Source: Candidatus Omnitrophota bacterium
Lineage (GTDB): Bacteria > Omnitrophota > Gorgyraeia > Gygaellales > Profunditerraquicolaceae
Length of the DNA stretch: 64,000 bases
NCBI GenBank assembly: GCA_035402765.1
Contig: DAONDX010000005.1
Location: 7,304 to 71,303 of the forward strand
Reading direction: 5' to 3'
The notes below the pieces were generated by a model. The model made no database searches. It was given only the letters and a program-made list of their open reading frames with translations, and had not been told where the DNA came from. Positions 1 through 16,114 of this stretch are shown in pieces. Within the stretch, counting starts at the first letter, position 1. Every line of letters begins with the position of its first letter. A program made the translations under genes and the position numbers.

Positions 1-170
1 AGATTAAGGTTGTTTCGGGTGACTGGAATCCGTCCAGGATTATTATCGTAGAATTTGATTCTATGGATAAGTTCAGTGCCTGGTGGAACTCACCGGAATA
101 TAAATTAATAGCACCGCTACGTGAGCAAGCTACTAAAACAAATGCTATAGTGACGGAGGGGATTAAGTGA
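1..170 (+). CDS. DUF1330-like protein, C-terminal fragment (5' end outside window)
   Basis: In-frame translation ...IKVVSGDWNPSRIIIVEFDSMDKFSAWWNSPEYKLIAPLREQATKTNAIVTEGIK* ends at TGA 168-170, overlapping the next gene's GTG start (GTGA). The motif resembles the DUF1330 C-terminal region. Confidence 0.45.
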   Translation, partial: IKVVSGDWNPSRIIIVEFDSMDKFSAWWNSPEYKLIAPLREQATKTNAIVTEGIK

Positions 171-859
171 AAAATAGATTTAAAGTCATAAAAGAGCACT
201 TTGATAGAGAAGCTGCTGCATTCGATGAACTCTTCTTTAAGGTAATGCCGCGCTATGAGGAGATGATGCAGGCGTTAATTGATGCATTGCCATTTGGCAA
301 GAAGGATAGATTAAAAATTATTGATTTAGGTTGCGGTACCGGAAATTTAAGTAAAAAACTTATCTCGGCATATCCTAATGCGCGTATCGACTGTGTCGAT
401 ATGGCAGGAAATATGATTAAAATAGCCAAGGCAAAATTAAAAGGTAACCGTAATGTCGCATTTTGGTTAGGCGACATAAGGGATTTTGATTATAAGGGAA
501 AATATGATTGTATAGTCGCGTCCATGGTGCTGCACCATGTCGAAGGTAAAGATAAGCCGCGTTTTTATAGAAAACTCTATAATTCACTGTCAAAGAAAGG
601 AGTGTTCTTCTGTATTGATATATTTCTTTCTTCTAACCTTCATCTGCAAAAATTATATATGGATAAATGGAAGGCATTTATGAAAGCAAGCAAGCTGCCG
701 GTAAAGAAAACCGATGATATGATAGCTCGTCATCAAAGAGAAGATAGACCCGTTATTCTTACAGATGAACTCGCCATAATGCATAAAGCAGGATTTAAGC
801 ACGTAGATGTTATTTTGAAACATTATAATTTCGCTGTCTACGGGGGTAAAAAATATTAG
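167..859 (+). CDS. class I SAM-dependent methyltransferase
   Basis: Glycine-rich motif I IIDLGCGTGNLS; acidic D after the beta2 strand; about 230 aa. GTG start overlaps the upstream stop. Confidence 0.8.
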   Translation: MKNRFKVIKEHFDREAAAFDELFFKVMPRYEEMMQALIDALPFGKKDRLKIIDLGCGTGNLSKKLISAYPNARIDCVDMAGNMIKIAKAKLKGNRNVAFWLGDIRDFDYKGKYDCIVASMVLHHVEGKDKPRFYRKLYNSLSKKGVFFCIDIFLSSNLHLQKLYMDKWKAFMKASKLPVKKTDDMIARHQREDRPVILTDELAIMHKAGFKHVDVILKHYNFAVYGGKKY

Positions 860-871
860 GAGAATAGTAAT

Positions 872-1294
872 ATGAATAAGGCTGAAGATGCGGTTTTGAT
901 GTTTAAAGAAGGTTTTAGTTGTTCGCAGGCTATACTCTCGACATACGGGCAGGAATTGGGAATAGATAAAGCAACCGCGCTAAAAATTTCTGCGCCATTT
1001 GGCGGCGGAATGGCTCGTATGGGTGAAACCTGCGGAGCGGTTACGGGCGCTTTCATGGTTATGGGGCTTAAATACGCAAATGACAAAGGATCGAAAGAAA
1101 AACTCTATGGGTTGGTAAACAAATTCGCAGAAAAATTCAAATCAAAAAACGGTTCAATTTTATGCAAGGAATTACTTGGTTACAACATCGGTACTTCTGA
1201 GGGCATGAAAGCGGTAAAGGAAAAAGGGCTTATCGATACGCTGTGCCCAAAGTTAGTCAAAGACGCCGCAGAAATTCTGGAAGAGATATTATAA
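872..1294 (+). CDS. C_GCAxxG_C_C family protein (putative redox-active small protein)
   Basis: Cys spacing CSQAIL...ETCGAVTGA...LCKEL...LCPKL is typical of the C_GCAxxG_C_C family. RBS AGGAG lies 8 nt upstream of the ATG. Confidence 0.6.
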   Translation: MNKAEDAVLMFKEGFSCSQAILSTYGQELGIDKATALKISAPFGGGMARMGETCGAVTGAFMVMGLKYANDKGSKEKLYGLVNKFAEKFKSKNGSILCKELLGYNIGTSEGMKAVKEKGLIDTLCPKLVKDAAEILEEIL

Positions 1295-1321
1295 GTGCAA
1301 AGAACTTAAGGGAGATGAAGT

Positions 1322-1630
1322 ATGGATATTTACAAAAAATCATATCAGACTAAGAATGGTCTAGTTGAAGGAGTGCAGGTTAAGTGGTCGAATTTCAGTA
1401 TTCTTCTGGTAGCTGGAAAAAAGGCATTTTTAACATGCGGTGTTTTTGATCTGGACGCTATTGATGCTTTCGGAGGAGCGGCTGCTATAGTGGAGAGCAC
1501 ACCAGATAATCCGATTGGTAATCTGGAACGGTTCCCAAACAGGAAAATTACCAAAATTAATTCGAAAGCAAAAGCTTTAGGTATTACCGCAGGAATGGCA
1601 GTTAAAGATGCTTTTGATATAATAGCATGA
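1322..1630 (+). CDS. small conserved protein, possibly DUF1805/YunC-like
   Basis: 102-aa ORF with good RBS (GGGAGATGAAG). Gly-rich GGAAAIVESTPDNPIG segment. The family assignment is from memory only. Confidence 0.35.
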   Translation: MDIYKKSYQTKNGLVEGVQVKWSNFSILLVAGKKAFLTCGVFDLDAIDAFGGAAAIVESTPDNPIGNLERFPNRKITKINSKAKALGITAGMAVKDAFDIIA

Positions 1631-1661
1631 AGAAGTATTTATAAATTAAGGAGTAAATAAA

Positions 1662-2423
1662 ATGAAACAATGGTATGAGCTATTATTTGAGAATTACGCG
1701 CAGAAATATGACCAAGAGAGCTATGTTCATGGAACATCCGGGGAATGTGATTCTATTGAACAGGAGATAAACCGGGACAAGTCAATAAAAATTCTAGATA
1801 TCGGTTGCGGTACCGGCCGCCATGCTATTGAGCTGGCAAAAAGAGGATATCAAGTAACGGGAATTGATCTATCCGAGTCGCAGCTTAAGAGGGCGAAAGA
1901 AAAAGCAAAAGAGCAGGGAGTGAAGATTGACTTCCAGAGGCATGACGCAAGAAACCTTCCTTTCAAAAGTGATTTCGATTTGGCAATCATGCTCTGTGAG
2001 GGCGGTTTTTCTTTGATGGAAACGGATGAAATGAATTTTGAAATACTCAAGAATGCAACCAAGTCATTGAAAAATAACGGTAAGTTTATATTCACCACAT
2101 TGAATGGATTGTTTCCGTTGTTCCATTCGGTAAAGGAATTTTATGGGTCGGCGGGTAAAGAAGGGGGTTCGGTTTGTAAAAGTATATCCTTCGATTTGAT
2201 GACTTTCCGCGATCATAATCGCGTTGAATTTGAAGATGACGCGGGAAATAAAAATGCATTGGAATGCAACGAGCGATGTTATGTCCCCAGTGAGATAACC
2301 TGGCTTTTAAAAACGCTTGGGTATAAGAAGATAGAGATTTTTGGAGCTAAGCTCGGAGCTTATTCAAGGAAAGATAAATTAACTCCGGAAGATTTCGAAA
2401 TGCTTGTTATTGCAGAAAAATGA
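1662..2423 (+). CDS. class I SAM-dependent methyltransferase
   Basis: ILDIGCGTGRHAIELAKRGYQVTGIDLS motif I/II. RBS AAGGAG upstream. Confidence 0.8.
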   Translation: MKQWYELLFENYAQKYDQESYVHGTSGECDSIEQEINRDKSIKILDIGCGTGRHAIELAKRGYQVTGIDLSESQLKRAKEKAKEQGVKIDFQRHDARNLPFKSDFDLAIMLCEGGFSLMETDEMNFEILKNATKSLKNNGKFIFTTLNGLFPLFHSVKEFYGSAGKEGGSVCKSISFDLMTFRDHNRVEFEDDAGNKNALECNERCYVPSEITWLLKTLGYKKIEIFGAKLGAYSRKDKLTPEDFEMLVIAEK

Positions 2424-2695: not shown

Positions 2696-2723
2696 ACTTT
2701 TATAATTAGGTAAGCTAAGTGGT

Positions 2724-2825
2724 CCGGAAATATAGAAATATATAGAAGTATTTCTGGAGGAGCTTTTGATGGTCGGGCCGCCATCTGATTTAATAATCAG
2801 GTGACGGTTTTTTGTTTTTCGGAGG
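2724..2825 (+). promoter_or_regulatory. conserved leader/attenuator element, copy 1
   Basis: Hairpin CCGGAAATA...TATTTCTGG. GGAGGA RBS. Mini-ORF ATGGTCGGGCCGCCATCT... spans 2769-2804 and encodes MVGPPSDLIIR. A terminator hairpin (CCGCCATCTGATT/AATCAGGTGACGG) is followed by TTTTTTGTTTTT, then the GGAGG RBS of the otsA-fusion gene. An alternative GATGG/CCATC hairpin overlaps the terminator's 5' arm. A near-identical copy lies at 8856-8945. Confidence 0.55.
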
Positions 2826-2833
2826 CTAATTAA

Positions 2834-5071
2834 ATGAAAAGAATTCTATTGTTTATCCTGCCCATATTAATCTTAGTTGCGCTTGGATTTGCTATTTCGG
2901 GCGTTATGCAAGCTCGTTTCACAGAAGATAAGCTTATGGATGATTTAAAAAGAAAAGCCAGGTCTGTGGATGAAGGCTTGGAATTATCAGCTAAGTATAT
3001 TCTTATTAACAATGATTTAAAGCAAGCCAACCGTTTAGTTGATAGCTTCCAGAAAAGAGAAAGGCTGCAAGGTTGTGTTATTTACGATAAAGATGGCCAG
3101 ATATTAGCGATTACTGAAAGATTCTCTGATTTTAAACAGAAAGAAAGGCCATATTTGAAAGATATCCTATCTTCTAAATCGCCGCGAGGAGCGCTGGAAA
3201 AGTTTAAAGAATACTCTGTATATAGCTACATTTTACCTGTCTTAAATGATGATGAGAGTGTATTAGGAATGGTAGAGGTAGTTTATGACACATCGTATAT
3301 GTTTACTACTTTAACTGAATTATGGAGAAAAATAAGCGTTACCTCCATTGCGCTTATCTTACTAATAGTTTTAACTGCCTTATTAATTCAGAGACAAATT
3401 TTTATTGTTCCGGTACGTAGGCTAACGCAGTGGTTTACGCATTTTCAAAGAGGAGAAACTGATAAATTGCGGCCGTTTGCTGAAAAAGGTGAATTTGGTA
3501 AGTTGATTAGTGAGGTAGAGCAGGTTGCCTTAAGCATTAGAGTAGCGCGTCGTACCATATCAGATGAAGCGCATGTGCGCTTGCAAAAAGAAGATCTTTG
3601 GACTGAAGCCAAGCTTAAAGATCTAATCCACGCAAAATTAGGAGAGAATTCTTTATTCGTGGTTTCTAATCGAGAGCCGTATATGCATGTTTTCGATGAG
3701 AATTTGGGTAAGGAGACATGCATAAGGCCGGCAAGTGGCGTGGTCACTGCGATACATCCAATACTTTCAGCTTGCGGTGGGACCTGGATTGCGCATGGCA
3801 GTGGTAATTCTGATAAAAAATTCGTTAACTCTAAAGATAAACTCGGCGTGCCTCCTGAGGATAACCGGTATATTCTTAAGAGAGTTTGGCTTAATAAGGA
3901 AGAAGAACAAGGTTATTATTATGGTTTTTCCAACGAAGGGTTATGGCCCTTATGCCATAATACACATACGCGGCCGGTTTTTAAAGAATCTGACTGGCGT
4001 ATGTATAAAGAAGTAAATCAGAAATTCGCAGACAGTATTTTAAATGAACTACCGGTAAGCAGCCCGTTTATATTTATCCAAGATTATCACTTTACTCTTT
4101 TGCCAAAGATGATCAAAGATAAACGGCCGGATGCAAAAGTAGCTTTATTCTGGCACATACCTTGGCCTACCCCTGAAGCTTTTATGATTTGTCCTTATCA
4201 GAATGAAATTTTAGAGGGCATGTTAGGATGTGATTTGATCGGTTTTCATGTTCAGAACCATTGCAACAATTTTTTGGATACCGCCAACCGTTTGCTTGAG
4301 TCACGCGTAGATACTGAAAAATTCAGTGTTGTGCGTTCGGGTAAGGAAACTTTTATCAGGGCTTTTCCTATCAGTATTGACTCGCATATTGGCGATGGTT
4401 CATTTAGAGTCGATCCTGTCAGACAGGTAGAGAAACTTAAGAAGGAGTTTGAGCTGAATGATGAAACTATTGTCGTGGGGGTGGATAGAATCGATTATAC
4501 TAAAGGCATAGTCGAGAAGATTTTAGCCGTCGATAGATTTTTAGATAAGTATCCTGAATATAAAAAGAAATTTGTTTTTATACAACTAGCCGCACCAAGC
4601 CGAACACATATTAAGCGTTATCATGATTTAATCGGGGAAATCGATGAATTAGTTGAAAAAATTAACTGGAAACATATAGATGGAAACTGGAAGCCAATAA
4701 TCTATCTAAAAAAGCATTTTTCTCAAGATGATATCCAGCCTTATTATAGGCTTGGTGATATTTGTATTGTTAGTTCGCTGCATGATGGCATGAATTTGGT
4801 GGCTAAAGAGTATGTTGCAGAGAAGGATGACTTATCCGGGGTGTTAATCTTAAGTCAATTCACCGGGGCAGCGCGAGAGCTTACCGATGCTATTTTGGTT
4901 AATCCATATTCAATTGAAGAGTTTGCGGATAGTATAAAATTGGCCATTCAGATGCCCAGGGAAGAGAAGGTGAGGCGTATGGTAAATATGCGTAAGGTGA
5001 TAGTGGAAAATAATATTTACCGCTGGGCAGCTAACATTATCAATGAGATGGTTGCATTAAAACAAATTTAA
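2834..5071 (+). CDS. otsA: membrane sensor (2 TM + periplasmic domain + HAMP) fused to trehalose-6-phosphate synthase (GT20)
   Basis: N-terminal ~260 aa: TM1 (ILLFILPILILVALGFAI), a periplasmic region, TM2 (ISVTSIALILLIVLTALLI), and a HAMP-like amphipathic segment (IVPVRRLTQWF...GEFGKLISEVEQVALSI). The C-terminal part aligns to OtsA motifs: LFVVSNREPY, GGTW, EGLWPLCH, VNQKFAD, IQDYHFTLLP, FWHIPWP, CDLIGFHVQ, VDRIDYTKGI, DGMNLVAKEYVA...LSQFTGAA...ILVNPY. Confidence 0.8.
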   Translation: MKRILLFILPILILVALGFAISGVMQARFTEDKLMDDLKRKARSVDEGLELSAKYILINNDLKQANRLVDSFQKRERLQGCVIYDKDGQILAITERFSDFKQKERPYLKDILSSKSPRGALEKFKEYSVYSYILPVLNDDESVLGMVEVVYDTSYMFTTLTELWRKISVTSIALILLIVLTALLIQRQIFIVPVRRLTQWFTHFQRGETDKLRPFAEKGEFGKLISEVEQVALSIRVARRTISDEAHVRLQKEDLWTEAKLKDLIHAKLGENSLFVVSNREPYMHVFDENLGKETCIRPASGVVTAIHPILSACGGTWIAHGSGNSDKKFVNSKDKLGVPPEDNRYILKRVWLNKEEEQGYYYGFSNEGLWPLCHNTHTRPVFKESDWRMYKEVNQKFADSILNELPVSSPFIFIQDYHFTLLPKMIKDKRPDAKVALFWHIPWPTPEAFMICPYQNEILEGMLGCDLIGFHVQNHCNNFLDTANRLLESRVDTEKFSVVRSGKETFIRAFPISIDSHIGDGSFRVDPVRQVEKLKKEFELNDETIVVGVDRIDYTKGIVEKILAVDRFLDKYPEYKKKFVFIQLAAPSRTHIKRYHDLIGEIDELVEKINWKHIDGNWKPIIYLKKHFSQDDIQPYYRLGDICIVSSLHDGMNLVAKEYVAEKDDLSGVLILSQFTGAARELTDAILVNPYSIEEFADSIKLAIQMPREEKVRRMVNMRKVIVENNIYRWAANIINEMVALKQI

Positions 5072-5085
5072 TTTATGAGGTGCAA

Positions 5086-6141
5086 ATGAATAAAGAGTTT
5101 TATGTAAAATTTAGTAGTTTAGCCGAAATGTTTATGCCTTTGATTATTTTCTTAATAGTTTTGCTTGTCGGGTTTATTATTAAAAAAATAATTCTCAGTC
5201 GACTTCTGCGCTGGGCAAAAAAAACATCTACCCAATTGGACGATATTATAGTGCAAGCTGCTAAAAGTCCACTTACGGTTATTTGCTTGATGTTGGCTTT
5301 ATATTTTGCGTTGCAATTTTCAAAACTCCCAGAAAATATTGTTCAGGTGATGAGTAAGAGTACTCTTATTCTAGGTATAATTGCTGCGGTATTAGCATTA
5401 GCGAATCTATTATCTGGGGTAATCAAGCTTTATGCTTCTCGAATTGATTCTGCTTTACCGGTTACTAGCCTCACTCAGAATATCGCCAGGGTTTTTGTTT
5501 TCTCAATCGGCGCGTTGATAATTCTTAACAGCTTAGGAATATCCATCACACCTATATTAGCTACTTTAGGAGTGGGTGGTTTAGCTGTAGCTTTGGCCCT
5601 CCAAGATACCCTAACTAATCTTTTCGCCGGATTCCATATTACTGTGGCTAAGCAAATCAGGGTCGGTGATTATATTAAATTGGAGTCAGGAGAAGAAGGT
5701 TATGTCGTGGATATTAACTGGCGATCAACAAAGATTAAAATGCTGTCCAATAACCTGGTGCTTATTCCAAATGATAAATTAAATAAAGCGATTGTTATCA
5801 ATTATTATTTACCGGATAAGGAAATGGCGGTTTTAGTTGATTTGGGGGTGCATTATAAAAGCGACTTGGGAAAAGTTGAGAAGGTTACCTGTGAAGTAGT
5901 AAGGTCTGTTATGAAAGAAGTAAACGGGGGAGTTGATTATTTTGAGCCATTTATCCGTTATCACACTTTTAGTGATTCTTGCATAAAATTTACAGTTATA
6001 TTAAGAGTTAAGGAATTTGCTGATCAGTATTTGATTAAACATGAGTTTATTAAGCGGCTGCATAAACGGTATACACAAGAAGGTATAAATATTCCTTATC
6101 CGATCATGACGATAAACTACGAGCAAGAGAAATCTGGATAA
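5086..6141 (+). CDS. mechanosensitive ion channel, MscS family
   Basis: TM helices followed by the conserved pore/beta-domain region GVGGLAVALALQDTLTNLFAGFHITVAKQIRVGDYIKL...GYVVDINWRSTKIKMLSNNLVLIPND. ATG 5086 is preferred over in-frame GTG 5080 because of the TGAGG RBS. Confidence 0.8.
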   Translation: MNKEFYVKFSSLAEMFMPLIIFLIVLLVGFIIKKIILSRLLRWAKKTSTQLDDIIVQAAKSPLTVICLMLALYFALQFSKLPENIVQVMSKSTLILGIIAAVLALANLLSGVIKLYASRIDSALPVTSLTQNIARVFVFSIGALIILNSLGISITPILATLGVGGLAVALALQDTLTNLFAGFHITVAKQIRVGDYIKLESGEEGYVVDINWRSTKIKMLSNNLVLIPNDKLNKAIVINYYLPDKEMAVLVDLGVHYKSDLGKVEKVTCEVVRSVMKEVNGGVDYFEPFIRYHTFSDSCIKFTVILRVKEFADQYLIKHEFIKRLHKRYTQEGINIPYPIMTINYEQEKSG

Positions 6142-6147
6142 TATAAA

Positions 6148-6948
6148 ATGCGTTATATTTTTAATGATTTAGATAAAATAAAAAGAAAATTGGTAGGTAA
6201 ATATATTTTTTTGTTCCTTGATTGCGATGGTACTTTGACGCCGATTGTTGATACGCCGGACAAAGCGATAATTCCCCCAGATACAAAAAAAATACTTAAT
6301 TTGTTGTCGCAGAAGAATAATTGTAGGATAGCCATTATTAGCGGTAGGGCCTTGGTTGATATTAAGAAAAAAGTTGGGCTTAAAAATATTATTTATTCAG
6401 GTAATCATGGTTTTCAAATCGAGGGGCCCAAGATTAATCATGAAATAGCAGTCCCCCTGGATTATAAAAAAATACTGGAGCGCATTAAGATTAAGCTCGA
6501 AGAGAGGCTTTTTGGCATAAAAGGAGTTTTTGTAGAAGATAAAAAGATTTCTTTGGCCTTGCATTATAGGCTAGCTAATCGAAAGCAGGTGCCCTTTATT
6601 AAAACTGTTTTTCATGAGAGCATTATTTTGTATTTAGTAAGAAATAAAATTAAGATTAGACCCGGGAAGGAGATTCTAGAAGTAATGCCTCCGGTTCATT
6701 GGGACAAAGGAAAGATTGTTTTGTGGCTTTTAGCCCGGCAGGAGGCTTTATCTAAAAACGGTCGGAATATTCCTATTTATATTGGAGATGATGCTACTGA
6801 TGAAGATGCTTTTAAAGCGCTTAAAAACAGAGGGTTAACCGTATTTGTAGGGAATGCCAATTCTTCGCAGGCAAAATATTATGTCAGAAATGTTAAAGAG
6901 GTCTATGAGTTATTAAAATATATCCTGGATATCCAGAATATAAAATAA
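6148..6948 (+). CDS. otsB: trehalose-6-phosphate phosphatase (HAD-IIB)
   Basis: FLFLDCDGTLTP (HAD motif I), IYIGDDATDEDAF (motif IV), typical OtsB length. Confidence 0.8.
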   Translation: MRYIFNDLDKIKRKLVGKYIFLFLDCDGTLTPIVDTPDKAIIPPDTKKILNLLSQKNNCRIAIISGRALVDIKKKVGLKNIIYSGNHGFQIEGPKINHEIAVPLDYKKILERIKIKLEERLFGIKGVFVEDKKISLALHYRLANRKQVPFIKTVFHESIILYLVRNKIKIRPGKEILEVMPPVHWDKGKIVLWLLARQEALSKNGRNIPIYIGDDATDEDAFKALKNRGLTVFVGNANSSQAKYYVRNVKEVYELLKYILDIQNIK

Positions 6949-6950
6949 CT

Positions 6951-7622
6951 ATGGTAGAGATAATAAGAGCTAAAGAGCCATTTAAATTTTACACCAGATT
7001 ACATTTAACTGAATTAACCGGGTTAAGAGCCACTACTTTAAGTCAGCTTGGCAGCCTTATTAAAAAGGTATCCGGATCAAGTATCTATCACCACACTCAC
7101 AGATTTCTGCAGCAGCATCAGTATCTTTCTCCCGAGCCCCCGAATGATTTTGCTTACTGGGTAACTGAAGTCCTGGGTGAGGATGAGTTGGGAGAGAAAT
7201 TAGCCAGCATTGATACTATTCAATATTCTACCATTCGTAGTCTTAGGGATAAAATCGTTTCAACAATTGATGATTATCTTGCGCATAGCCCTTTTGCTAA
7301 ATTAAAGTTTGCTAAAAGCGGAGAGGAGTTCCACTTTATGAAATCAGTAAGTTTTATTCTTCCTTCCGGATATAGCGTGACTGATTTAAGGGAATTTGCG
7401 GATTCCTTGCGGAAAATAACCATTGATTCCATATATTTCCATATTTTTGAGGCACGTTTAAGGCTTGAACGCGAAGGGAATGATTTTTCCAATTGGATCG
7501 AGCATTCTTTAGGAGATGAGGAATTAGCAAGAGAAATCTCAAACCTTGATCCGTATACCCAGACATTAGAAAATCTCAGGCAGTCGATTTTAAGCATTGT
7601 TCAAAAGAGGACGGGTTCTTAA
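6951..7622 (+). CDS. hypothetical protein conserved within the trehalose operon
   Basis: 223-aa ORF tightly packed between otsB and treT. No motif recognised. Confidence 0.4.
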   Translation: MVEIIRAKEPFKFYTRLHLTELTGLRATTLSQLGSLIKKVSGSSIYHHTHRFLQQHQYLSPEPPNDFAYWVTEVLGEDELGEKLASIDTIQYSTIRSLRDKIVSTIDDYLAHSPFAKLKFAKSGEEFHFMKSVSFILPSGYSVTDLREFADSLRKITIDSIYFHIFEARLRLEREGNDFSNWIEHSLGDEELAREISNLDPYTQTLENLRQSILSIVQKRTGS

Positions 7623-7623
7623 T

Positions 7624-8835
7624 ATGGCATACATAAAAGAATATATCCCGATTGTCGGACAGTCTATTATTGATGATTTACAGCTTCTTGGCGATAAGCT
7701 AGCTGGTAAGACAATTCAGCATATTAATTCTACGGCTGTAGGTGGAGGGGTGGCGGAAATATTAAATCGTATGGTTCCTCTTTTAAAGGAGCTTGGAGTG
7801 GATACGCGATGGGATGTGATTAAAGGTGGTGAGCAATTTTATGAAGTAACGAAAAAGTTTCATAACGCTTTGCATGGCAGGCAGGAATCTATAAATATGC
7901 GTGATTTCAATATCTTTATGGAAACTAGCGCTAAAAATATCGAGGAAGTAAATACATCCCGTGATATTGTTTTTGTTCATGATCCACAACCGATTGCGTT
8001 AGTAAAAAAGAAATCCGGGAATAAATGGATTTGGCGCTGCCATATTGATGTGTCAGGTCCTAACCAGAAAGTCTGGAAATTTCTCAGGAGTTATATTGAT
8101 AAATACGATGCAGCGGTATTCTCTGCTCCTGATTTTTCACCGCGATTGCCGATCAGGCAGTTTTTGATTGCTCCTTCGATCGATCCTTTAAGTGATAAAA
8201 ATAAGGAGTTGCCCCAAGATATAATTGATGGGGTTTTACAAAAATATAAGTTAACTATGGATAAGCCTATGTTGACGCAGATTTCGCGTTTTGACCGTTT
8301 AAAGGACCCTCTGGGGGTTATTGAAGCTTATCAGCAGGTAAAACGATATATCGATTGTCAGCTAATTTTAGCAGGAGGTACGGCCAGCGATGATCCTGAA
8401 GGTCTGAAGGTGCTTGAGGAAGTTCAAGAAAAGGCAAGTAAGGATAAAGATATTCATATTTTATTATTGCCTCAAAATGATATCGAAGTTAATGCTTTGC
8501 AGCGAGCCGCAACCGTTATTATTCAGAAGTCGCTTAAAGAAGGATTTGGCCTAACAGTTTCTGAAGCGTTATGGAAAGCCAAACCAGTTATTGCTTCCAA
8601 TGTTGGAGGGATTCCTCTGCAGATTAAGCATAAATACTCCGGATTGCTTTGTAGTTCGATTGATGGAGCAGCGTTTTCTATAAAACAGCTTTTTAATAGC
8701 CCAGAGTACGCTAAGAAATTGGGCCAGAACGGTAGAGAACACGTTAAAAATAATTTTTTACTAACCAGGCATTTACGTGAATATATGCTTTTGTTTCTTT
8801 CATTATATCATCCTGAAGATATCGTTTATCTTTAG
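7624..8835 (+). CDS. treT: trehalose glycosyltransferring synthase, TreT-like (GT4)
   Basis: Motifs shared with archaeal TreT: INSTAVGGGVAEIL, VFVHDPQP, WRCHIDVS, PSIDPLS, SRFDRLKDP, KEGFGLTVSEALWKAKPVI. ATG 7624 directly follows the upstream stop. The in-frame extension back to 7597 overlaps the previous gene. Confidence 0.75.
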   Translation: MAYIKEYIPIVGQSIIDDLQLLGDKLAGKTIQHINSTAVGGGVAEILNRMVPLLKELGVDTRWDVIKGGEQFYEVTKKFHNALHGRQESINMRDFNIFMETSAKNIEEVNTSRDIVFVHDPQPIALVKKKSGNKWIWRCHIDVSGPNQKVWKFLRSYIDKYDAAVFSAPDFSPRLPIRQFLIAPSIDPLSDKNKELPQDIIDGVLQKYKLTMDKPMLTQISRFDRLKDPLGVIEAYQQVKRYIDCQLILAGGTASDDPEGLKVLEEVQEKASKDKDIHILLLPQNDIEVNALQRAATVIIQKSLKEGFGLTVSEALWKAKPVIASNVGGIPLQIKHKYSGLLCSSIDGAAFSIKQLFNSPEYAKKLGQNGREHVKNNFLLTRHLREYMLLFLSLYHPEDIVYL

Positions 8836-8855
8836 TTAATTTGGTATACAAGGGT

Positions 8856-8945
8856 TCGGAAGTTTTTTCTTCCGGAGGATCTAGATGGTCGGGCCGCCAT
8901 CTTGCATGTTAGTGCAGGATGGCGTTTTTGTTTTATAAGGATAAA
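8856..8945 (+). promoter_or_regulatory. conserved leader/attenuator element, copy 2
   Basis: Hairpin CGGAAG...CTTCCGG. GGAGGA RBS. Mini-ORF 8885-8938 encodes MVGPPSCMLVQDGVFVL, with its first 18 nt identical to copy 1 (ATGGTCGGGCCGCCATCT). Hairpin CCATCTTGCA/TGCAGGATGG is followed by GTTTTTGTTTT. Confidence 0.55.
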
Positions 8946-9522: not shown

Positions 9523-10131
9523 ATGAACCTAGGGCAGTTTTTAGCTATTTTTATCTCGGCAGTTTTTGTTAACAATGTTATCCTGTCACGTTTTTTAGGG
9601 TTGTGCCCCTTTGTCGCTATATCTAAAGACACAAGGCAGGCGTTTGTCATGAGTATGGCCGTTACGTTTGTGACTACAATATCGTCTGCCATAACCTGGC
9701 TGGTTTATAAATTTCTTTTGGTTCAATTTAACTTAACATATTTACGTACTTTAGTTTTTGTTTTAATCATTGCTGCTTTTGTGCAATTGGTGGAAATGAT
9801 AATAAGAAAAACGAGCCCCGCCCTTTATCGCGCCTTCGGTATTTATCTTGTTTTAATTACAACAAATTGCGCAGTTTTAGGCGTAGCGGTTTTAAATATT
9901 GATATGTTTTTTGTAGACAATAAAGCAATAACTGGAAGCTTTGCATTCTCAATATTCCAGGGGTTATGTGTAGGAATTGGCTATACTTTAGCTATGCTTT
10001 TGATGTCAGGTATTAGGGAGCGGCTTGAACTTTGTACTTCACCCAAAGCATTGCAAGGTTTGCCTTTAGCTTTTATTGTTGCTTCTATAATGAGTCTTGC
10101 TTTTATGGGGTTTGGCGGATTCAAATTCTGA
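9523..10131 (+). CDS. RnfA/NqrE-family membrane subunit (orphan)
   Basis: VNNVILSRFLGLCPF, LTYLRTLVFVLIIAAFVQLVEMIIRKTSPALYRAFGIYLVLITTNCAVLGVAVLN and MSLAFMGFGG closely match RnfA/RsxA. No other rnf/nqr subunit is in the window. Confidence 0.8.
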   Translation: MNLGQFLAIFISAVFVNNVILSRFLGLCPFVAISKDTRQAFVMSMAVTFVTTISSAITWLVYKFLLVQFNLTYLRTLVFVLIIAAFVQLVEMIIRKTSPALYRAFGIYLVLITTNCAVLGVAVLNIDMFFVDNKAITGSFAFSIFQGLCVGIGYTLAMLLMSGIRERLELCTSPKALQGLPLAFIVASIMSLAFMGFGGFKF

Positions 10132-10176
10132 AATAAAGGTTTATTAAGTTAATAAGAGACAGAATTGTACGATATC

Positions 10177-10302
10177 ATGCGTTTATGGGCGCTTATTATT
10201 GCTGTCTTTATGTTATTTTTCTTTATAATTTTCTCGCAGAAGATTAAAGAAGAAAGTAAGTGTAATAAAGAAGATAAAAATTATGGAAAGAATAAAGCCT
10301 GA
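10177..10302 (+). CDS. small single-TM peptide (41 aa)
   Basis: MRLWALIIAVFMLFFFIIFSQKIKEESKCNKEDKNYGKNKA. Weak RBS. Confidence 0.25.
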   Translation: MRLWALIIAVFMLFFFIIFSQKIKEESKCNKEDKNYGKNKA

Positions 10303-10375
10303 AATGACCGGAGATTTATCTAGAGATTGGATTCTTTATGTGTTTTTAGCCGGAGTAACAGGCGTTATTATTTAA
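10283..10375 (+). CDS. small single-TM peptide (30 aa), DW-motif paralog
   Basis: MERIKPEMTGDLSRDWILYVFLAGVTGVII. Overlaps the previous small ORF in a different frame. Confidence 0.3.
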   Translation: MERIKPEMTGDLSRDWILYVFLAGVTGVII

Positions 10376-10420
10376 TTATTCTAGTGAAAAAAACGAAAGT
10401 TAAAAAGGAGGGATTCTCAA

Positions 10421-10564
10421 ATGGCAGGTAATTTAGTGCAGGATTGGCCCGTGTATGTACTGGGAGGATTAGTAATATTTTTCTTTGCTTATATGATTAT
10501 CAAAAGTAACTTTGGTGAAAAAGACAAAAATACAACTCAACCGTCAGATAAGGTTAATAAATAG
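10421..10564 (+). CDS. small single-TM peptide (47 aa), DW-motif paralog
   Basis: Strong RBS AAGGAGGG. MAGNLVQDWPVYVLGGLVIFFFAYMIIKSNFGEKDKNTTQPSDKVNK. Confidence 0.45.
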   Translation: MAGNLVQDWPVYVLGGLVIFFFAYMIIKSNFGEKDKNTTQPSDKVNK

Positions 10565-10566
10565 GA

Positions 10567-11188
10567 ATGGATAGAAGTATTATTCCGCTTTTTCTATTTG
10601 TTCTGGGCTATATTTTATTCGTGGCGTTTCCCGGAAGGATGTCTTTGGTTGTATAATTGCAGCCAGGTTACTTTCAATAACCCGACTGTTGTCCTTTCTT
10701 GGGGCCATGAATTTTGTAAATTGGAATGTCATGGGAATTTTCGTGGGCACATTAGCCGTAGCGGATGTTTTTATGGAAAGTAAGGTGCCTGTGGTTATTG
10801 CTGAGATTATTGTTGATAAAGCCCATAATACTGCTTGGGCAATTTTATTTTTGTGTGTTTTACAGTTTTTACCTCTGCGTTTGTGGACAATATTCCTTTC
10901 TTAGTAGCTATGTTATCTGTGGCCATTTAGATGGCTAGTAAACTTAATGTAAGCCCTTCATTGTTTCTTTTTGGGATACTTATTGGTGCAAGTTTAGGAG
11001 GCGATATTACACCGATCGGAGCTTTGGCTAATATTGTTACCTGTGGTTTACTTAAAAAAGAGGGATATATATTTAAGTTTAAAGATTTTATGAAAATTGG
11101 AATTCGTTTTACTTTTGCCGCTGTAGCTGCCGCGTATTTATTTGTTTGGTTCATTTGGAGGCCACGATTTTCTTATTGTCTGCCATAG
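10567..11188 (+). pseudogene. degraded ArsB/NhaD/CitMHS-type anion permease (frameshifts plus internal deletion)
   Basis: Three frames together encode an N-terminal part (IIPLFLFVLGYILFVAFPG; NFVNWNVMGIFVGTLAVADVF...AILFLCV; SAFVDNIPFLVAMLSVAI in a shifted frame) and a C-terminal part (GGDITPIGALANIVTCGLL...) of a ~420-aa permease. The middle ~220 aa are missing. Confidence 0.55.
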
Positions 11189-11363
11189 AGAAGCGGTCAA
11201 TTGGTTAACCTTTTAATTGTAAACAGTTACACGATTTAGAGCTAAAAATTACCGGATAAAACGGACTTCTGCTCCGCCTTCGGTTTCGCAGGATTTGACT
11301 AAATCAAAGCTTAATGTGCTCAAAATTTAGCGAGGAAATAGCCTCTCCAAATACAGAATATTC

Positions 11364-11392
11364 TTGATATGTCGGGGTATTACACCTGTAAT
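11364..11392 (+). promoter_or_regulatory. sigma-70-like promoter of the candidate sRNA
   Basis: TTGATA, 17 nt, TGTAAT. Confidence 0.35.
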
Positions 11393-11398
11393 TAAGCT

Positions 11399-11562
11399 AA
11401 TATATTTAGAGAGGTTTCCCCTTGGCCTATCCGAGTGGGACCCTTAAATTTCCCTCATTTGCGGATAAGAAATTTATCCCGGGTGAAGTGAGGGATAGCA
11501 TAAAACACAAGTAAGCCTAAAGGCTATTGATTGGAAACGATCAATAGCCTTTATATTTGTTT
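11399..11562 (+). ncRNA. candidate small RNA (promoter + nested hairpins + intrinsic terminator)
   Basis: Nested inverted repeats TCCCTCA...TGAGGGA enclose GGATAA-N5-TTATCC. The transcript ends in the strong terminator at 11521-11562. No ORF with an RBS is present. Confidence 0.3.
11521..11562 (+). terminator. rho-independent terminator
   Basis: AGGCTATTGAT / ATCAATAGCCT 11-bp stem with a 7-8-nt loop, then TTTATATTTGTTT. Confidence 0.6.
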
Positions 11563-11616
11563 ACCGACGGACAAAATATTTAAATAATTTTGTTTTTCTT
11601 TTTAGAAAAAATAAAC

Positions 11617-11644
11617 TTGACAAAAAAATATTAAATGTTATACT
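11617..11644 (+). promoter_or_regulatory. consensus sigma-70 promoter upstream of amtB
   Basis: TTGACA, 16 nt, TATACT, with an A-rich UP-like tract upstream. Confidence 0.6.
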
Positions 11645-11649
11645 TTTTC

Positions 11650-11665
11650 TTGACAGTGATGTCAA
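11650..11665 (+). promoter_or_regulatory. perfect palindromic operator candidate at the predicted TSS
   Basis: TTGACAGTGATGTCAA (6-4-6 perfect inverted repeat) immediately downstream of the -10. Confidence 0.4.
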
Positions 11666-11676
11666 AGAAGTAAAGA

Positions 11677-11758
11677 GACAAAGATGCCCCGGGAACTATC
11701 TGGGGTTTTTCTATTTTTCAGGGACAAAGATGCCCTTTTTTAAAAGCAGAGATGCTTT
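11677..11758 (+). repeat. direct repeats GACAAAGATGCCC (two copies) plus palindrome AAAGCAGAGATGCTTT
   Basis: Copies at 11677-11689 and 11724-11736. The palindrome is at 11743-11758. Each is followed by a T-rich run. Confidence 0.5.
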
Positions 11759-11786
11759 CGAAAAAGGGTTTTATTTTTTTAAAGAC

Positions 11787-11830
11787 AGAGACGTCTTCAA
11801 TCTAACAGAAAGAAGTCGTCTCTTTTTTTT
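11787..11830 (+). terminator. hairpin + U8 intrinsic-terminator-like structure directly upstream of amtB
   Basis: AGAGACGTCTTC...GAAGTCGTCTCT (11/12 complementary) followed by TTTTTTTT. Confidence 0.5.
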
Positions 11831-11845
11831 GGGACGGGAAAGGCA
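11830..11845 (+). promoter_or_regulatory. sigma-54-like -24/-12 element
   Basis: TGGGACGGGAAAGGCA versus consensus TGGCACG-N4-TTGCA (GG and GC correctly spaced). It lies only ~4 nt upstream of the annotated ATG, so the true amtB start may be the downstream ATG at 11882. Confidence 0.3.
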
Positions 11846-11848
11846 GGA

Positions 11849-13078
11849 ATGATAAATTCGGGAGATACAGCGTGGGTTTTAATGTCGGCGGCTTTAGTTT
11901 TGTTAATGACTCCGGCTTTGGCGTTCTTTTATGGCGGGATGGTCAGGCGAAAGAATGTTTTGAGTGTTTTAATGCAGTGTTTTATTGTAATGTGCGTTTT
12001 AAGCCTGCATTGGGTATTAATCGGTTATAGCTTATCTTTTGCCCCGGCAAAAGGATTTTGGGGAGGGCTGCAGTGGTTTGGTTTAAACGGAGTAGGTTTA
12101 GAGCCATATGCCGATTATGCCGGAACGATTCCTCACCAGGCATTTATGATCTACCAGTGTATGTTTGCGATCATCACCCCGGCTTTAATTATTGGGGCGT
12201 TTGCAGAAAGGATGAAATTTTCCTCTTTTCTGGTATTTACACTACTGTGGGCTACTTTGGTATATAACCCTTTATGCCACTGGGTTTGGGGTGTTGGAGG
12301 CTGGTTAAGGAATCTGGGGGCGTTGGATTTTGCCGGAGGCACTGTGGTACATATCAATGCCGGAATTGCTGCGTTGGTGACTGCAATAATATTAGGTAAG
12401 CGGGTTAATCTCGATAAAAATATTCCTACTCCTCATAATATGCCGTTAGTAGTTTTGGGCACGGGTCTATTGTGGTTTGGCTGGTTCGGGTTTAATGCCG
12501 GAAGCGCCCTGGCTGCTAATGGTTTAGCGGTTAATGCCTTTGTGGTGACCAATACTGCTGCTGCCGCTGCGGGTTTAAGCTGGGCGTTAATTGAGTGGAT
12601 GCGTAATGGTAAGCCGACAATTTTCGGTGTTTGTTCAGGAGCAGTTGCCGGATTAGTGGCAATTACTCCGGCGGCTGGTTTTGTCAGTGTGATTCCCGCA
12701 ATTATTATCGGATTGTTAGTCAGCGTGTTTTGTTTTGCCGCGGTTACCATAATTAAGCCAAAATTAGGTTATGATGACTCTTTGGATGCTTTTGGCGTGC
12801 ATTGTATCGGCGGTATCTGGGGCGCTTTAGCAACCGGGTTATTTGCTTCTAAATTAGTTAATCCTGCCGGTTCAGACGGGTTATTTTTTGGTAATCCCAA
12901 ACAACTATTAATCCAGCTGACTACTGTTTTAGTTACGATTATTTATACTCTGATTGTGACGCTGATAATTTATAAGCTGGTCGACTTGTTCATGGGGGTG
13001 CGGGTAAAAAAAGATGAAGAGCTTATCGGATTAGATCTTACTCAGCACCATGAACGGGCCTATACCGTATTGGAATAA
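11849..13078 (+). CDS. amtB: ammonium transporter
   Basis: DTAWVLMSAALVLLMTPALAFFYGGMVRRKN, 11 TM helices, conserved His pair region, typical Amt length. Confidence 0.9.
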   Translation: MINSGDTAWVLMSAALVLLMTPALAFFYGGMVRRKNVLSVLMQCFIVMCVLSLHWVLIGYSLSFAPAKGFWGGLQWFGLNGVGLEPYADYAGTIPHQAFMIYQCMFAIITPALIIGAFAERMKFSSFLVFTLLWATLVYNPLCHWVWGVGGWLRNLGALDFAGGTVVHINAGIAALVTAIILGKRVNLDKNIPTPHNMPLVVLGTGLLWFGWFGFNAGSALAANGLAVNAFVVTNTAAAAAGLSWALIEWMRNGKPTIFGVCSGAVAGLVAITPAAGFVSVIPAIIIGLLVSVFCFAAVTIIKPKLGYDDSLDAFGVHCIGGIWGALATGLFASKLVNPAGSDGLFFGNPKQLLIQLTTVLVTIIYTLIVTLIIYKLVDLFMGVRVKKDEELIGLDLTQHHERAYTVLE

Positions 13079-13087
13079 GGAGGAAAG

Positions 13088-13429
13088 ATGAAACTGATTA
13101 TCGCAATAATTCAACCTTCGAAATTAGAAGAAGTCAAAGAAGAGCTTTATAAACAAGAGATTAACCTGATTACGGTCAGTGAAGTTTTGGGGCATGGCCG
13201 TCAGAAAGGGATTACCGAGGTCTACCGCGGCGCGAAAGAAAGCGGCAATCTGCTAAGAAAAATCCGGCTGGAGATCGCGGTAAACCAGAATTTCGTTGAA
13301 CCGACAATTAAGGCCATTGTTAAAGGCGCTAAAACCGGGGAGACTGGGGATGGCAAGATTTTTGTTTTGGATTTAGAAGAATGTGTCCGTATCCGGACAG
13401 AAGAACGCGGCTCGGTTGCAATCGGATAA
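13088..13429 (+). CDS. glnK: nitrogen regulatory protein P-II (GlnK type, linked to amtB)
   Basis: 113 aa. T-loop [15 protein letters not shown] with the conserved Tyr. Located directly downstream of amtB. Confidence 0.9.
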
Positions 13430-13466
13430 ATTTTGATAAACTAAATAATAATAGAGAGGAAAAAAG

Positions 13467-15662: not shown

Positions 15663-15733
15663 AAATAATTCTTGGAAGCGGCGCAAAGTTTATGTTTTAT
15701 TTTGGAAAAAACTGATTAAGGATTGTGCAAAAT

Positions 15734-16114
15734 ATGATTACTATTGTGATATCCGAGTCAGATGAAGGGAAAGTTAAAGAGCTGCTGAATAAAATACTCA
15801 AGGAAGAAGGTTATGACTTATCCGAGAGTTTAGCCCAGGGGAACGTCATCCGTCTGGCCCACAGGGATAATATCCGGGATTTAGCTTTTATTAAAGACAA
15901 AGCGATTACGCTGGGAGATTCCTGGTATAGTGAAAAAAGAGGCCAATTATATAAATCAGTTTTATTTGAGATTGAGAAACCTTTGATCGAGCATGTCTTA
16001 GAACGCACCGAGGGTAATCAGCTCAAGGCCGCTAAGATCCTAGGTATGAACCGGAATACTATGCGGGCAAAGATTAAGAAATTAGGGATAGATCCTGATC
16101 AATGGAAGATATAA
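15734..16114 (+). CDS. small Fis-family HTH DNA-binding protein (NtrC C-terminal-like)
   Basis: C-terminal GNQLKAAKILGMNRNTMRAKIKKLGI is a Fis-type HTH. No receiver or AAA+ domain. ATG 15734 is preferred over GTG 15725 (RBS AAGGA). Confidence 0.55.
   Translation: MITIVISESDEGKVKELLNKILKEEGYDLSESLAQGNVIRLAHRDNIRDLAFIKDKAITLGDSWYSEKRGQLYKSVLFEIEKPLIEHVLERTEGNQLKAAKILGMNRNTMRAKIKKLGIDPDQWKI

Follow-up and report, generated by a model that had tools for sequence, protein, structure and literature searches.

Can a bacterium join a receptor for signals at its membrane directly to the enzyme that makes a compatible solute? This question is raised by a 64,000-nucleotide stretch of DNA from a Candidatus Omnitrophota bacterium (hereafter the window; contig DAONDX010000005.1 of assembly GCA_035402765.1, positions 7,304 to 71,303 of the forward strand; G+C content of 41.7%), in which one gene encodes what look like both halves of such a device. 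An initial annotation, made from the sequence alone, had read the gene at 2834..5071 (+) as a trehalose-6-phosphate (T6P) synthase, OtsA, fused behind the input half of a sensor protein. Our analysis confirmed the order of the protein as transmembrane (TM) helix, single Cache domain (sCache), TM helix, HAMP-like domain, linker and complete catalytic domain of glycosyltransferase family 20 (GT20). We consider it probable, on balance, that the product is a membrane-embedded receptor-enzyme in which an osmotic or ionic input tunes T6P synthesis. The gene is a single unbroken open reading frame (ORF) with no internal stop, encoding 745 amino acids (aa) plus a stop codon from an ATG start, with a Shine-Dalgarno GGAGG at 2821-2825, 8 nt 5' of ATG 2834. 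A database protein with the annotation 'MAG TPA: trehalose-6-phosphate synthase [Candidatus Omnitrophota bacterium]', where MAG denotes a metagenome-assembled genome, has the same sequence (100% identity).

Domain architecture of the sensor-OtsA protein

The catalytic GT20 domain occupies aa 273-745 (3650..5068, +). The Pfam search that had been suggested for the 745-aa protein matched Glyco_transf_20 (PF00982) on aa 274-739 at an E-value (E) of 6e-126, with 421.4 bits against a gathering threshold of 32.5. This match spans profile positions 3-471 of 473, so that the domain is complete, as had been claimed. The best relative in the PDB is OtsA of Mycolicibacterium thermoresistibile (5jij, E 2e-85), and the E. 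coli OtsA structures match at ~7e-70. For a check of individual residues, the protein was aligned to E. coli K-12 OtsA taken from NC_000913.3, using positions that we take from the crystal-structure literature to be the glucose-6-phosphate/UDP-glucose contacts and catalytic residues (R9, G22, Y76, W85, D130, H154, R262, K267, R300, D361 and E369). All 11 are kept, in the same order, as R280, G302, Y362, W371, D417, H441, R552, K557, R590, D651 and E659, and the same 11 residues are invariant in the aligned Acidobacteriota, Bdellovibrionota and stand-alone relatives.

The equivalog cut-offs of NCBIfam were not reached (TIGR02400 OtsA: 431.5 bits versus 564.85; PRK14501: 483 versus 634; GgpS TIGR02398: 310 versus 569), and the closest models are OtsA/TPSP followed by glucosylglycerol-phosphate synthase. 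The call of T6P-synthase specificity therefore leans on the adjacent gene for OtsB, the T6P phosphatase. Since all 11 substrate and catalytic positions are kept and otsB lies in the same operon, the GT20 domain is very probably active, as far as conserved residues can tell. The reading of GT20 as an inactive, regulatory domain was rejected in view of the 11 conserved residues. A second GT20 copy inside the window was considered and rejected, and a scan of the window for tRNA genes found none.

Characterised soluble OtsA enzymes (E. coli, 1gz5/1uqt; M. thermoresistibile, 5jij) share with this protein the full GT20 profile, the 11 residues and an OtsB partner, which the window operon provides. 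The known enzymes are soluble proteins of ~456-500 aa without a membrane or sensor module, whereas the window protein carries 272 extra N-terminal residues. Using Kyte-Doolittle 19-residue windows with a threshold of >1.6, we found hydrophobic stretches only at aa 1-30 and 162-195, which gives exactly two TM segments ~138 residues apart and bears out the predicted pair of helices around an extracytoplasmic domain of ~140 aa. TM1 (~aa 4-26; 2843..2911, +) reaches a hydropathy of 2.94, is helical in the AlphaFold2 (AF2) model and has K2 and R3 on its cytoplasmic side. TM2 (~aa 166-190; 3329..3403, +) is likewise called from hydropathy, and in the model a helix of residues 154-205 runs through the membrane into helix 1 of the HAMP-like domain.

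Between the two TM segments lies a periplasmic domain of single-Cache (PDC) fold (aa 28-165; 2915..3328, +). The AF2 monomer model of aa 1-272, built from 19 relatives with a mean predicted local distance difference test score (pLDDT) of 83.6, places a long helix at 2-59 (TM1 plus a stalk), a helix at 62-76, strands at 79-85 and 90-93, helices at 95-102 and 107-114, strands at 118-124, 127-137 and 143-152, the TM2 helix at 154-205 continuing into the cytoplasm, a connector at 206-219 and helices at 220-253 and 258-269. In this model aa 28-165 have the layout expected of a Cache domain, with a long N-terminal helix and an antiparallel sheet with intervening helices, located extracytoplasmically between two TM helices. 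The closest folds of the sensor module are those of CitA (citrate), DctB (C4-dicarboxylates), WalK and KinD. Pfam sCache_3_2 matches 14 of the 19 relatives (best E 1e-6), and with a profile of the family the extracellular domain of WalK is recovered at E 0.0025. The NCBIfam model for the WalK kinase aligns to aa 3-245 (E 9e-8) through its N-terminal 256 positions only, that is, through the whole input half of the kinase.

Directly after TM2, aa 191-238 (3404..3547, +) form a HAMP-like domain of helix 1, connector and helix 2, called from PDB profile matches, motifs and conservation. The layout is that of a HAMP domain, with ~50 residues comprising, in the AF2 model, a helix to residue 205, the connector and a second helix from 220. 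The landmarks of the family are also in place: a proline near the start of helix 1 (P193), a glycine at its end (G207) and an acidic-x-Gly motif opening helix 2 (E220 and G222). P193, G207 and G222 are invariant with an Af1503-like spacing, and position 220 is mostly E or D. When a profile of the linker region (aa 186-256) was searched against all PDB sequences, the Af1503 HAMP domain came out on top with an end-to-end alignment (E 0.014). Of the 15 matches, ten come from Af1503 HAMP structures or chimeras and one more from a rhodopsin-chemotaxis transducer chimera. Pfam HAMP also matches 10 of the 19 relatives at E<=0.05 (best 1.5e-6), and there is a weak NCBIfam match to SiaA on aa 162-254 (E 0.046). 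A helical linker (aa 239-272; 3548..3649, +) with conserved W256-T257 and a pre-GT20 helix, corresponding to the model helices 220-253 and 258-269, connects the domain to the enzyme. These matches agree with the HAMP-like linker running into GT20 that had been proposed and, together with the CitA/DctB/WalK folds, with the topology of the input half of a histidine kinase or chemoreceptor.

The resemblance is to the input half only. Neither Pfam nor NCBIfam matched the histidine-kinase domains DHp (HisKA) or HATPase_c in the 745-aa protein, which rules out its identity as a two-component histidine kinase, and the Pfam search returned no MCP, GGDEF or cyclase output. A word-index search for homologues with the N-terminal module alone returned only partial or GT20-linked proteins and no recognisable histidine kinase. 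The sensor kinases CitA, DcuS, DctB and WalK and the chemoreceptors have a signalling output, whereas the output of the window protein is a metabolic glycosyltransferase.

HAMP domains coupled to enzymes have precedents in the mycobacterial HAMP adenylyl cyclases such as Rv3645 and in the HAMP-PP2C phosphatase SiaA. In proteins of this type, to which the window protein can be likened, a HAMP domain directly after TM2 relays a conformational change to the catalytic domain in a dimer. Those enzymes act on signalling molecules or phosphoryl groups, which they produce or take away, whereas the output here makes a bulk metabolite. A second precedent is GgpS of Synechocystis, a soluble GT20 osmolyte synthase that is activated by salt post-translationally via electrostatic binding. 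It exemplifies ionic switching of such a synthase at the protein level, but has no fused receptor. As for the Cache domain, the yeast osmosensor Sln1 has an extracellular one and so provides a precedent for osmosensing, although it signals by a kinase relay, unlike the window protein (PMC4822843). With the exception of SMP_2, every output reported in a 2016 survey of Cache architectures is a known one of signal transduction (PMC4822843).

Conservation and spread of the fusion

When a one-genome-per-species collection was searched with a profile of the N-terminal module, 285 stretches matched, and the locus counts given here and below refer to the best 80 of these. In 80/80 loci the module continues without a gap or a change of frame into GT20. 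These loci are almost all from Omnitrophota, with a few MAGs labelled Planctomycetales, Elusimicrobia or Spirochaetes. The homology search for recurrence that had been advised also retrieved >120 full-length homologues with 72-95% identity, nearly all of 743-772 aa. When the representatives of 50%-identity clusters were searched exhaustively, ~12 more clusters emerged with full-length alignments of 39-45% identity; their named members include Acidobacteriota and Bdellovibrionota MAGs. By a count from the table of results, ~45 of the best 150 cluster representatives are extended at the N-terminus by 150 aa or more. A search with one Acidobacteriota member (P0222) as query added another >120 full-length proteins, ~755 aa in length, whose sources are Acidobacteriia, Terriglobia, Blastocatellia and Acidiferrales. 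One of them had been named 'trehalose-6-phosphate synthase/HAMP domain-containing protein' by the pipeline of the Joint Genome Institute; annotation pipelines otherwise label the homologues trehalose-6-phosphate synthase. The view that this N-terminus lies outside any known OtsA therefore holds for characterised enzymes and fails for the databases, where the fusion turns up frequently, in Omnitrophota, Acidobacteriota and Bdellovibrionota.

These counts also bear on a trivial explanation, namely that a small membrane sensor gene and otsA were joined by a frameshift, a mis-assembly or a wrongly chosen start. The search with the N-terminal module did return some short fragments, most of which are marked partial or come from short contigs. 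However, the junction is in frame in each of the 80 independent loci, the full-length homologues were assembled independently by many projects, and in the window a Shine-Dalgarno sequence precedes the ATG of an uninterrupted frame. We give such an artefact practically no credence, and regard it as ruled out by the recurrent in-frame fusion and the full-length homologues. Neither of the two outcomes that had been named as refuting the proposal, a lack of TM and HAMP features or a frameshift or assembly error, was found.

Column conservation, calculated from 63 full-length sequences, averages 0.78 in the HAMP domain, 0.78 in GT20 and 0.70 in the Cache domain, with 19 invariant positions in the periplasmic part and 16 in HAMP. 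As judged from these alignments, the whole N-terminal module is shown to be under strong purifying selection. Spacing is close to fixed as well: the HAMP helix-2 motif EVEQ lies 51 residues from the GT20 motif SNREP in 71/74 loci, and the HAMP proline lies 34 residues from EVEQ in 69/76. Such near-fixed spacing of linker and HAMP would be expected of a helical linker that provides mechanical coupling.

GT20 domains have also been fused N-terminally to other membrane proteins. In P0233 (851 aa) the partner is an MscS channel (MS_channel_2nd at 184-240, GT20 at 371-836), and in P0277 (919 aa) it is a Na+/H+ exchanger (Na_H_Exchanger at 43-409, GT20 at 433-900).

The trehalose operon and its riboswitches

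The sensor-OtsA gene heads a tightly packed operon of genes on the same strand. It is followed by a gene for an MscS-family mechanosensitive channel of 353 aa (5080..6141, +; Pfam MS_channel_1st, 2nd and 3rd, with NCBIfam MscS models below their cut-offs). The next gene encodes the trehalose-6-phosphate phosphatase OtsB (6148..6948, +; TIGR00685 with 175 bits versus 68, Pfam Trehalose_PPase 4.5e-44). Next come a DUF5752 protein (6951..7622, +; Pfam PF19027, 4.6e-70) and a TreT-like glycosyltransferase of family 4 (GT4; 7624..8835, +). The last resembles the TreT structures 6zj4 (E 8e-125) and 2x6q (2e-101) and matches Pfam TreT_GT1 at 8.6e-57, while the NCBIfam TreT model gives 374 bits, below its cut-off of 775. 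Its start is probably ATG 7624 rather than the TTG 7597 of the mechanical ORF, in agreement with 404-aa homologues. DUF5752 has no NCBIfam model match, and we found no paper on it.

In nearly every related locus of sufficient length, the OtsB, DUF5752 and TreT-like genes follow sensor-OtsA. The DUF5752 gene has otsB on one side and the TreT-like gene on the other, in Omnitrophota as well as in Acidobacteriota (11182-11832 in locus L082 and 11173-11829 in L084), and its stop and start codons often overlap or abut those of its neighbours. The position of mscS is more variable: it lies between otsA and otsB in ~20/80 loci and directly upstream of otsA in ~22/80, and was undetected in the rest. 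The four-gene cassette of sensor-OtsA, OtsB, DUF5752 and TreT-like GT4 recurs in Acidobacteriota. In L084, an Acidobacteriota locus, a gene for a mannosylglycerate-synthase-like glycosyltransferase (PF21969) and a small MS-channel-like gene (5927-7920) stand directly upstream of the cassette, an arrangement that suggests a larger compatible-solute island.

As a close relative of TreT is encoded in the operon, the OtsAB and TreT routes to trehalose are co-transcribed. By analogy with the GT of Thermoproteus tenax, the TreT-like protein could alternatively act as an activator partner. The msc-gt-tpsp operon of that organism (Zaparty et al. 2013) co-transcribes a GT20 synthase with a GT4 protein and a small mechanosensitive channel; its GT4 activates the synthase via complex formation, and the channel was proposed to be a trehalose release valve in a stress module (PMC3634074). 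The T. tenax synthase is soluble and carries its phosphatase as a C-terminal fusion (TPSP), whereas the window has a separate otsB and a synthase with its own membrane sensor; furthermore, the T. tenax GT4 is PimA-like, whereas that of the window is TreT-like and is accompanied by DUF5752 (PMC3634074). The window operon is thus analogous to the T. tenax-type trehalose operon and not a member of it.

In the leader of the operon we found an nhaA-I aptamer (Rfam RF03057; Li+-I / Na+-II family) at 2720..2786 (+), which ends 48 nt 5' of the ATG and matches the full model (positions 1-55) with 39.9 bits versus a gathering threshold of 37. It is followed by an expression platform at 2775..2822 (+), an intrinsic terminator hairpin with T-run. 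The 5' arm of this hairpin shares sequence with the 3' arm of aptamer helix P2, and a terminator scan also gave a match at 2782-2803. Just 5' of the aptamer, TATAAT at 2701-2706 is a putative promoter element. A second nhaA-I riboswitch (8852..8936, +) directly follows the TreT-like gene and consists of an aptamer at 8852-8902 (49.0 bits versus 37 in Rfam, full model), a 13-bp terminator at 8895-8924 and a T-run. From its position it would close the trehalose operon and may gate read-through into the genes downstream. Both copies carry the invariant GGUCGGGCCGCC hairpin loop.

In the minimum-free-energy fold of 2718-2822 the terminator forms and P2 does not, and the aptamer alone folds into P1 and P2. 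The same holds for the second copy: the full leader folds into the terminator and the aptamer by itself into P1 and P2, with the 5' arm of the terminator including the 3' arm of P2. These predicted folds suggest an ON-switch geometry for both copies. A covariance model built from 51 copies gave 63 matches in the window and the 80 loci, all on the + strand, and scored the leader copy at 62 bits. Across 62 distinct sequences, 8/8 pairs of P1 covary with compensatory changes. The riboswitch lies at most 600 nt upstream of the first operon gene (otsA or an upstream mscS) in 46/72 assessable loci. Because an nhaA-I riboswitch with a terminator platform stands upstream of the ATG, expression of the operon is very probably controlled by an ion. 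The initial annotation had envisaged a response without a transcriptional relay. This remains true in so far as control at the RNA level is not a protein relay, and is incomplete in that it overlooked the riboswitch.

Which ion this would be is suggested by comparison with published members of the class. According to White et al. 2022, most nhaA-I RNAs sense Li+, and rare terminator-type variants of Deltaproteobacteria sense Na+ (Na+-II); the Na+-II variants carry C at a specificity position (C54 of the Desulfobulbus propionicus construct, AGC-CGGGCC), and a C-to-U mutant responds to Li+, Na+ and NH4+ (PMC9646797). We mapped position 54 by inference from the construct sequence in the supplement of that paper. 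Both window copies have the terminator platform typical of Na+-II and lack its C, reading GGU-CGGGCC, and U is found in all related loci but L055. As in the D. propionicus example, the terminator of the window copies competes with P2 in an ON-switch design, but unlike the published terminator-type nhaA-I RNAs, which come from Deltaproteobacteria only and carry C, they occur in Omnitrophota with U (PMC9646797). Given the U at the specificity position and the broad response of the C-to-U mutant, the ligand may be Li+, Na+ or both. Among the genes associated with nhaA-I RNAs, the Breaker laboratory listed otsA (16), glycosyl transferase (5) and mscS (3), and proposed a possible link to osmotic stress (PMC9646797). 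Four related loci have further copies of the riboswitch at a distance of several kb on the upstream side of the trehalose operon (L003 993-1060, L009 1347-1416, L042 2355-2427 and L072 1551-1616), where they presumably control other genes.

Upstream of the operon, at 167-2423 (+), the window encodes two S-adenosylmethionine-dependent methyltransferases, a C_GCAxxG_C_C protein and a DUF1805 protein, which are separated from the trehalose operon by a terminator-like hairpin with a 20-bp stem at 2544-2590. Downstream of the second riboswitch, locus L006 has a gene (14761-16032) for a 423-aa CitMHS/ArsB/NhaD-like transporter, of which the window retains a decayed remnant at 10567-11161 (+), split over three frames with residues ~100-315 missing; there is no ORF of >85 aa in 10132-11848. 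An RnfA-like ORF lies between the second riboswitch and this remnant (9523-10131), and a nitrogen-assimilation cluster of ammonium transporter, P-II protein and type III glutamine synthetase follows at 11849-15662 (+).

Proposed mechanism, alternatives and significance

We propose that the protein would form a dimer through its TM and HAMP segments, in the manner of HAMP proteins. TM2 would then be shifted by a ligand in the periplasm or by a stimulus of membrane or osmotic origin, this shift would change the state of the HAMP bundle, and the helical linker of fixed length would alter the packing or closure of the two GT20 domains, so that T6P synthesis could rise or fall within seconds. OtsB from the same operon would convert T6P to trehalose, the TreT-like enzyme would offer a second route to the same product, and the MscS channel could act as a release valve upon hypo-osmotic shock. 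As a second and slower layer acting on the whole operon, the riboswitch would relieve the leader terminator when the cytoplasmic cation rises. Within this scheme, dimerisation, the transmission of the signal to GT20, its on or off direction and the identity of the stimulus are what we infer. The osmotic or ionic nature of the input is favoured by its context, namely mscS in the operon, the nhaA-I leader, and the fusions of GT20 to an MscS channel in P0233 and to a Na+/H+ exchanger in P0277.

Several observations weigh against a receptor-enzyme of this kind. On the 745-aa protein the Cache models of Pfam score below their gathering thresholds (dCache_1 26.6-28.5 versus 45; sCache_3_2 18-23 versus 28.4; sCache_4 17-20 versus 22.1). 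Pfam HAMP (PF00672) was not found at E<=1 when the whole protein was scanned; it appears in relatives and on the excised linker, where it spans profile positions 7-51 of 53 at 14.0-16.1 bits versus a gathering threshold of 25 (E 0.015-0.064). With both scores sub-threshold on this protein, the domain calls rest on family-level matches, motifs and fold. In the AF2 monomer, the helix after HAMP breaks at aa 254-257 ahead of GT20, so that no continuous coiled coil leads into the enzyme, unlike the passage from HAMP to DHp in kinases. The full-length AF2 model is of moderate quality (pLDDT of 69.6, with aa 234-253 below 50). The pre-GT20 helix is also present in stand-alone relatives, one of which (P0227) begins at the residue aligned with W256. 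Moreover, a search for the riboswitch in three Acidobacteriota loci found none, and the sensor and RNA layers are therefore separable. Finally, stress-responsive trehalose synthesis could be explained by the riboswitch alone, in which case the N-terminus would be merely structural.

This last point leads to an explanation that we hold to be unlikely, in which the N-terminal module transmits no signal and serves just to hold OtsA, as an anchor or scaffold, at the inner membrane near, for example, MscS, transporters or lipid acceptors, and all regulation is transcriptional and comes from the riboswitch. Since GT20 has also been fused to membrane proteins other than HAMP receptors, as in P0233 and P0277, the common denominator of these varied fusions could be membrane placement; the helix broken between HAMP and GT20 fits an anchor too, and the riboswitch already supplies control by stress. 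However, an anchor needs no conserved HAMP or periplasmic domain, whereas in this family HAMP equals the catalytic domain in conservation and the periplasmic part has 19 invariant residues. Linker lengths that are almost invariant likewise argue against it, as does the Acidobacteriota branch, which retains the sensor module without the riboswitch. A receptor-enzyme could also be driven by a chemical cue, with the Cache domain binding one specific small molecule (for example a carboxylate, some sugar, or a cue derived from a host or prey), and with trehalose serving as carbon reserve, as protectant against desiccation or cold, or as glycolipid precursor. The nearest folds, CitA, DctB and KinD, are ligand-binding sensors, and the invariant polar and aromatic residues Y84, R118, Y130, Y132 and E148, located on predicted strands, may resemble a ligand pocket. 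The family moreover spans different habitats, in Omnitrophota, soil Acidobacteriota and Bdellovibrionota. Against this, in this lineage mscS and the cation riboswitch of the operon speak for osmotic or ionic stress, and the sister fusions with an MscS channel and a Na+/H+ exchanger point to an osmotic or ionic input, which makes a chemical cue quite improbable in our judgement.

Turning back to the receptor-enzyme with an osmotic or ionic input, a literature search for a T6P synthase or OtsA with a HAMP, Cache or transmembrane module found nothing relevant, and the papers on Omnitrophota that we found mention only 'trehalose synthesis'. This agrees with the earlier statement that no characterised OtsA has such an architecture. 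The parts are ordinary: an OtsA-type GT20 domain, the Cache-HAMP half of a receptor, and a riboswitch class whose occasional association with otsA is already published. What we found described nowhere is the fusion itself, or an experiment on it.

We tentatively suggest, as something that seems to us quite possible, that this protein is the founding example of a widespread class of receptor-enzymes, in which Cache and HAMP domains directly gate the synthase of a bulk compatible solute without a kinase, second messenger or transcription factor, with the MscS and Na+/H+ exchanger fusions as parallel solutions and a two-input system in Omnitrophota. Control of osmolyte synthesis is usually attributed to transcription or to salt acting directly on soluble enzymes. 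With the synthase as the output of a receptor, regulation would take a new and very rapid route, and the known control by HAMP and Cache domains would extend beyond signalling outputs. If the suggestion is true, fusions of the P0233 and P0277 type would make trehalose synthesis respond directly to membrane tension or ion flux, and in Omnitrophota a signal from outside would act on the enzyme while a cation inside would act on the mRNA. The leader riboswitch provides independent evidence that RNAs of the nhaA-I class control trehalose operons, and indicates that terminator-type nhaA-I exists outside Deltaproteobacteria. The family is common, with at least 285 species-level genomes found by one profile in addition to a large Acidobacteriota branch, and its host lineages matter in groundwater, sediments and soils, where tolerance of drought and salt shapes communities.

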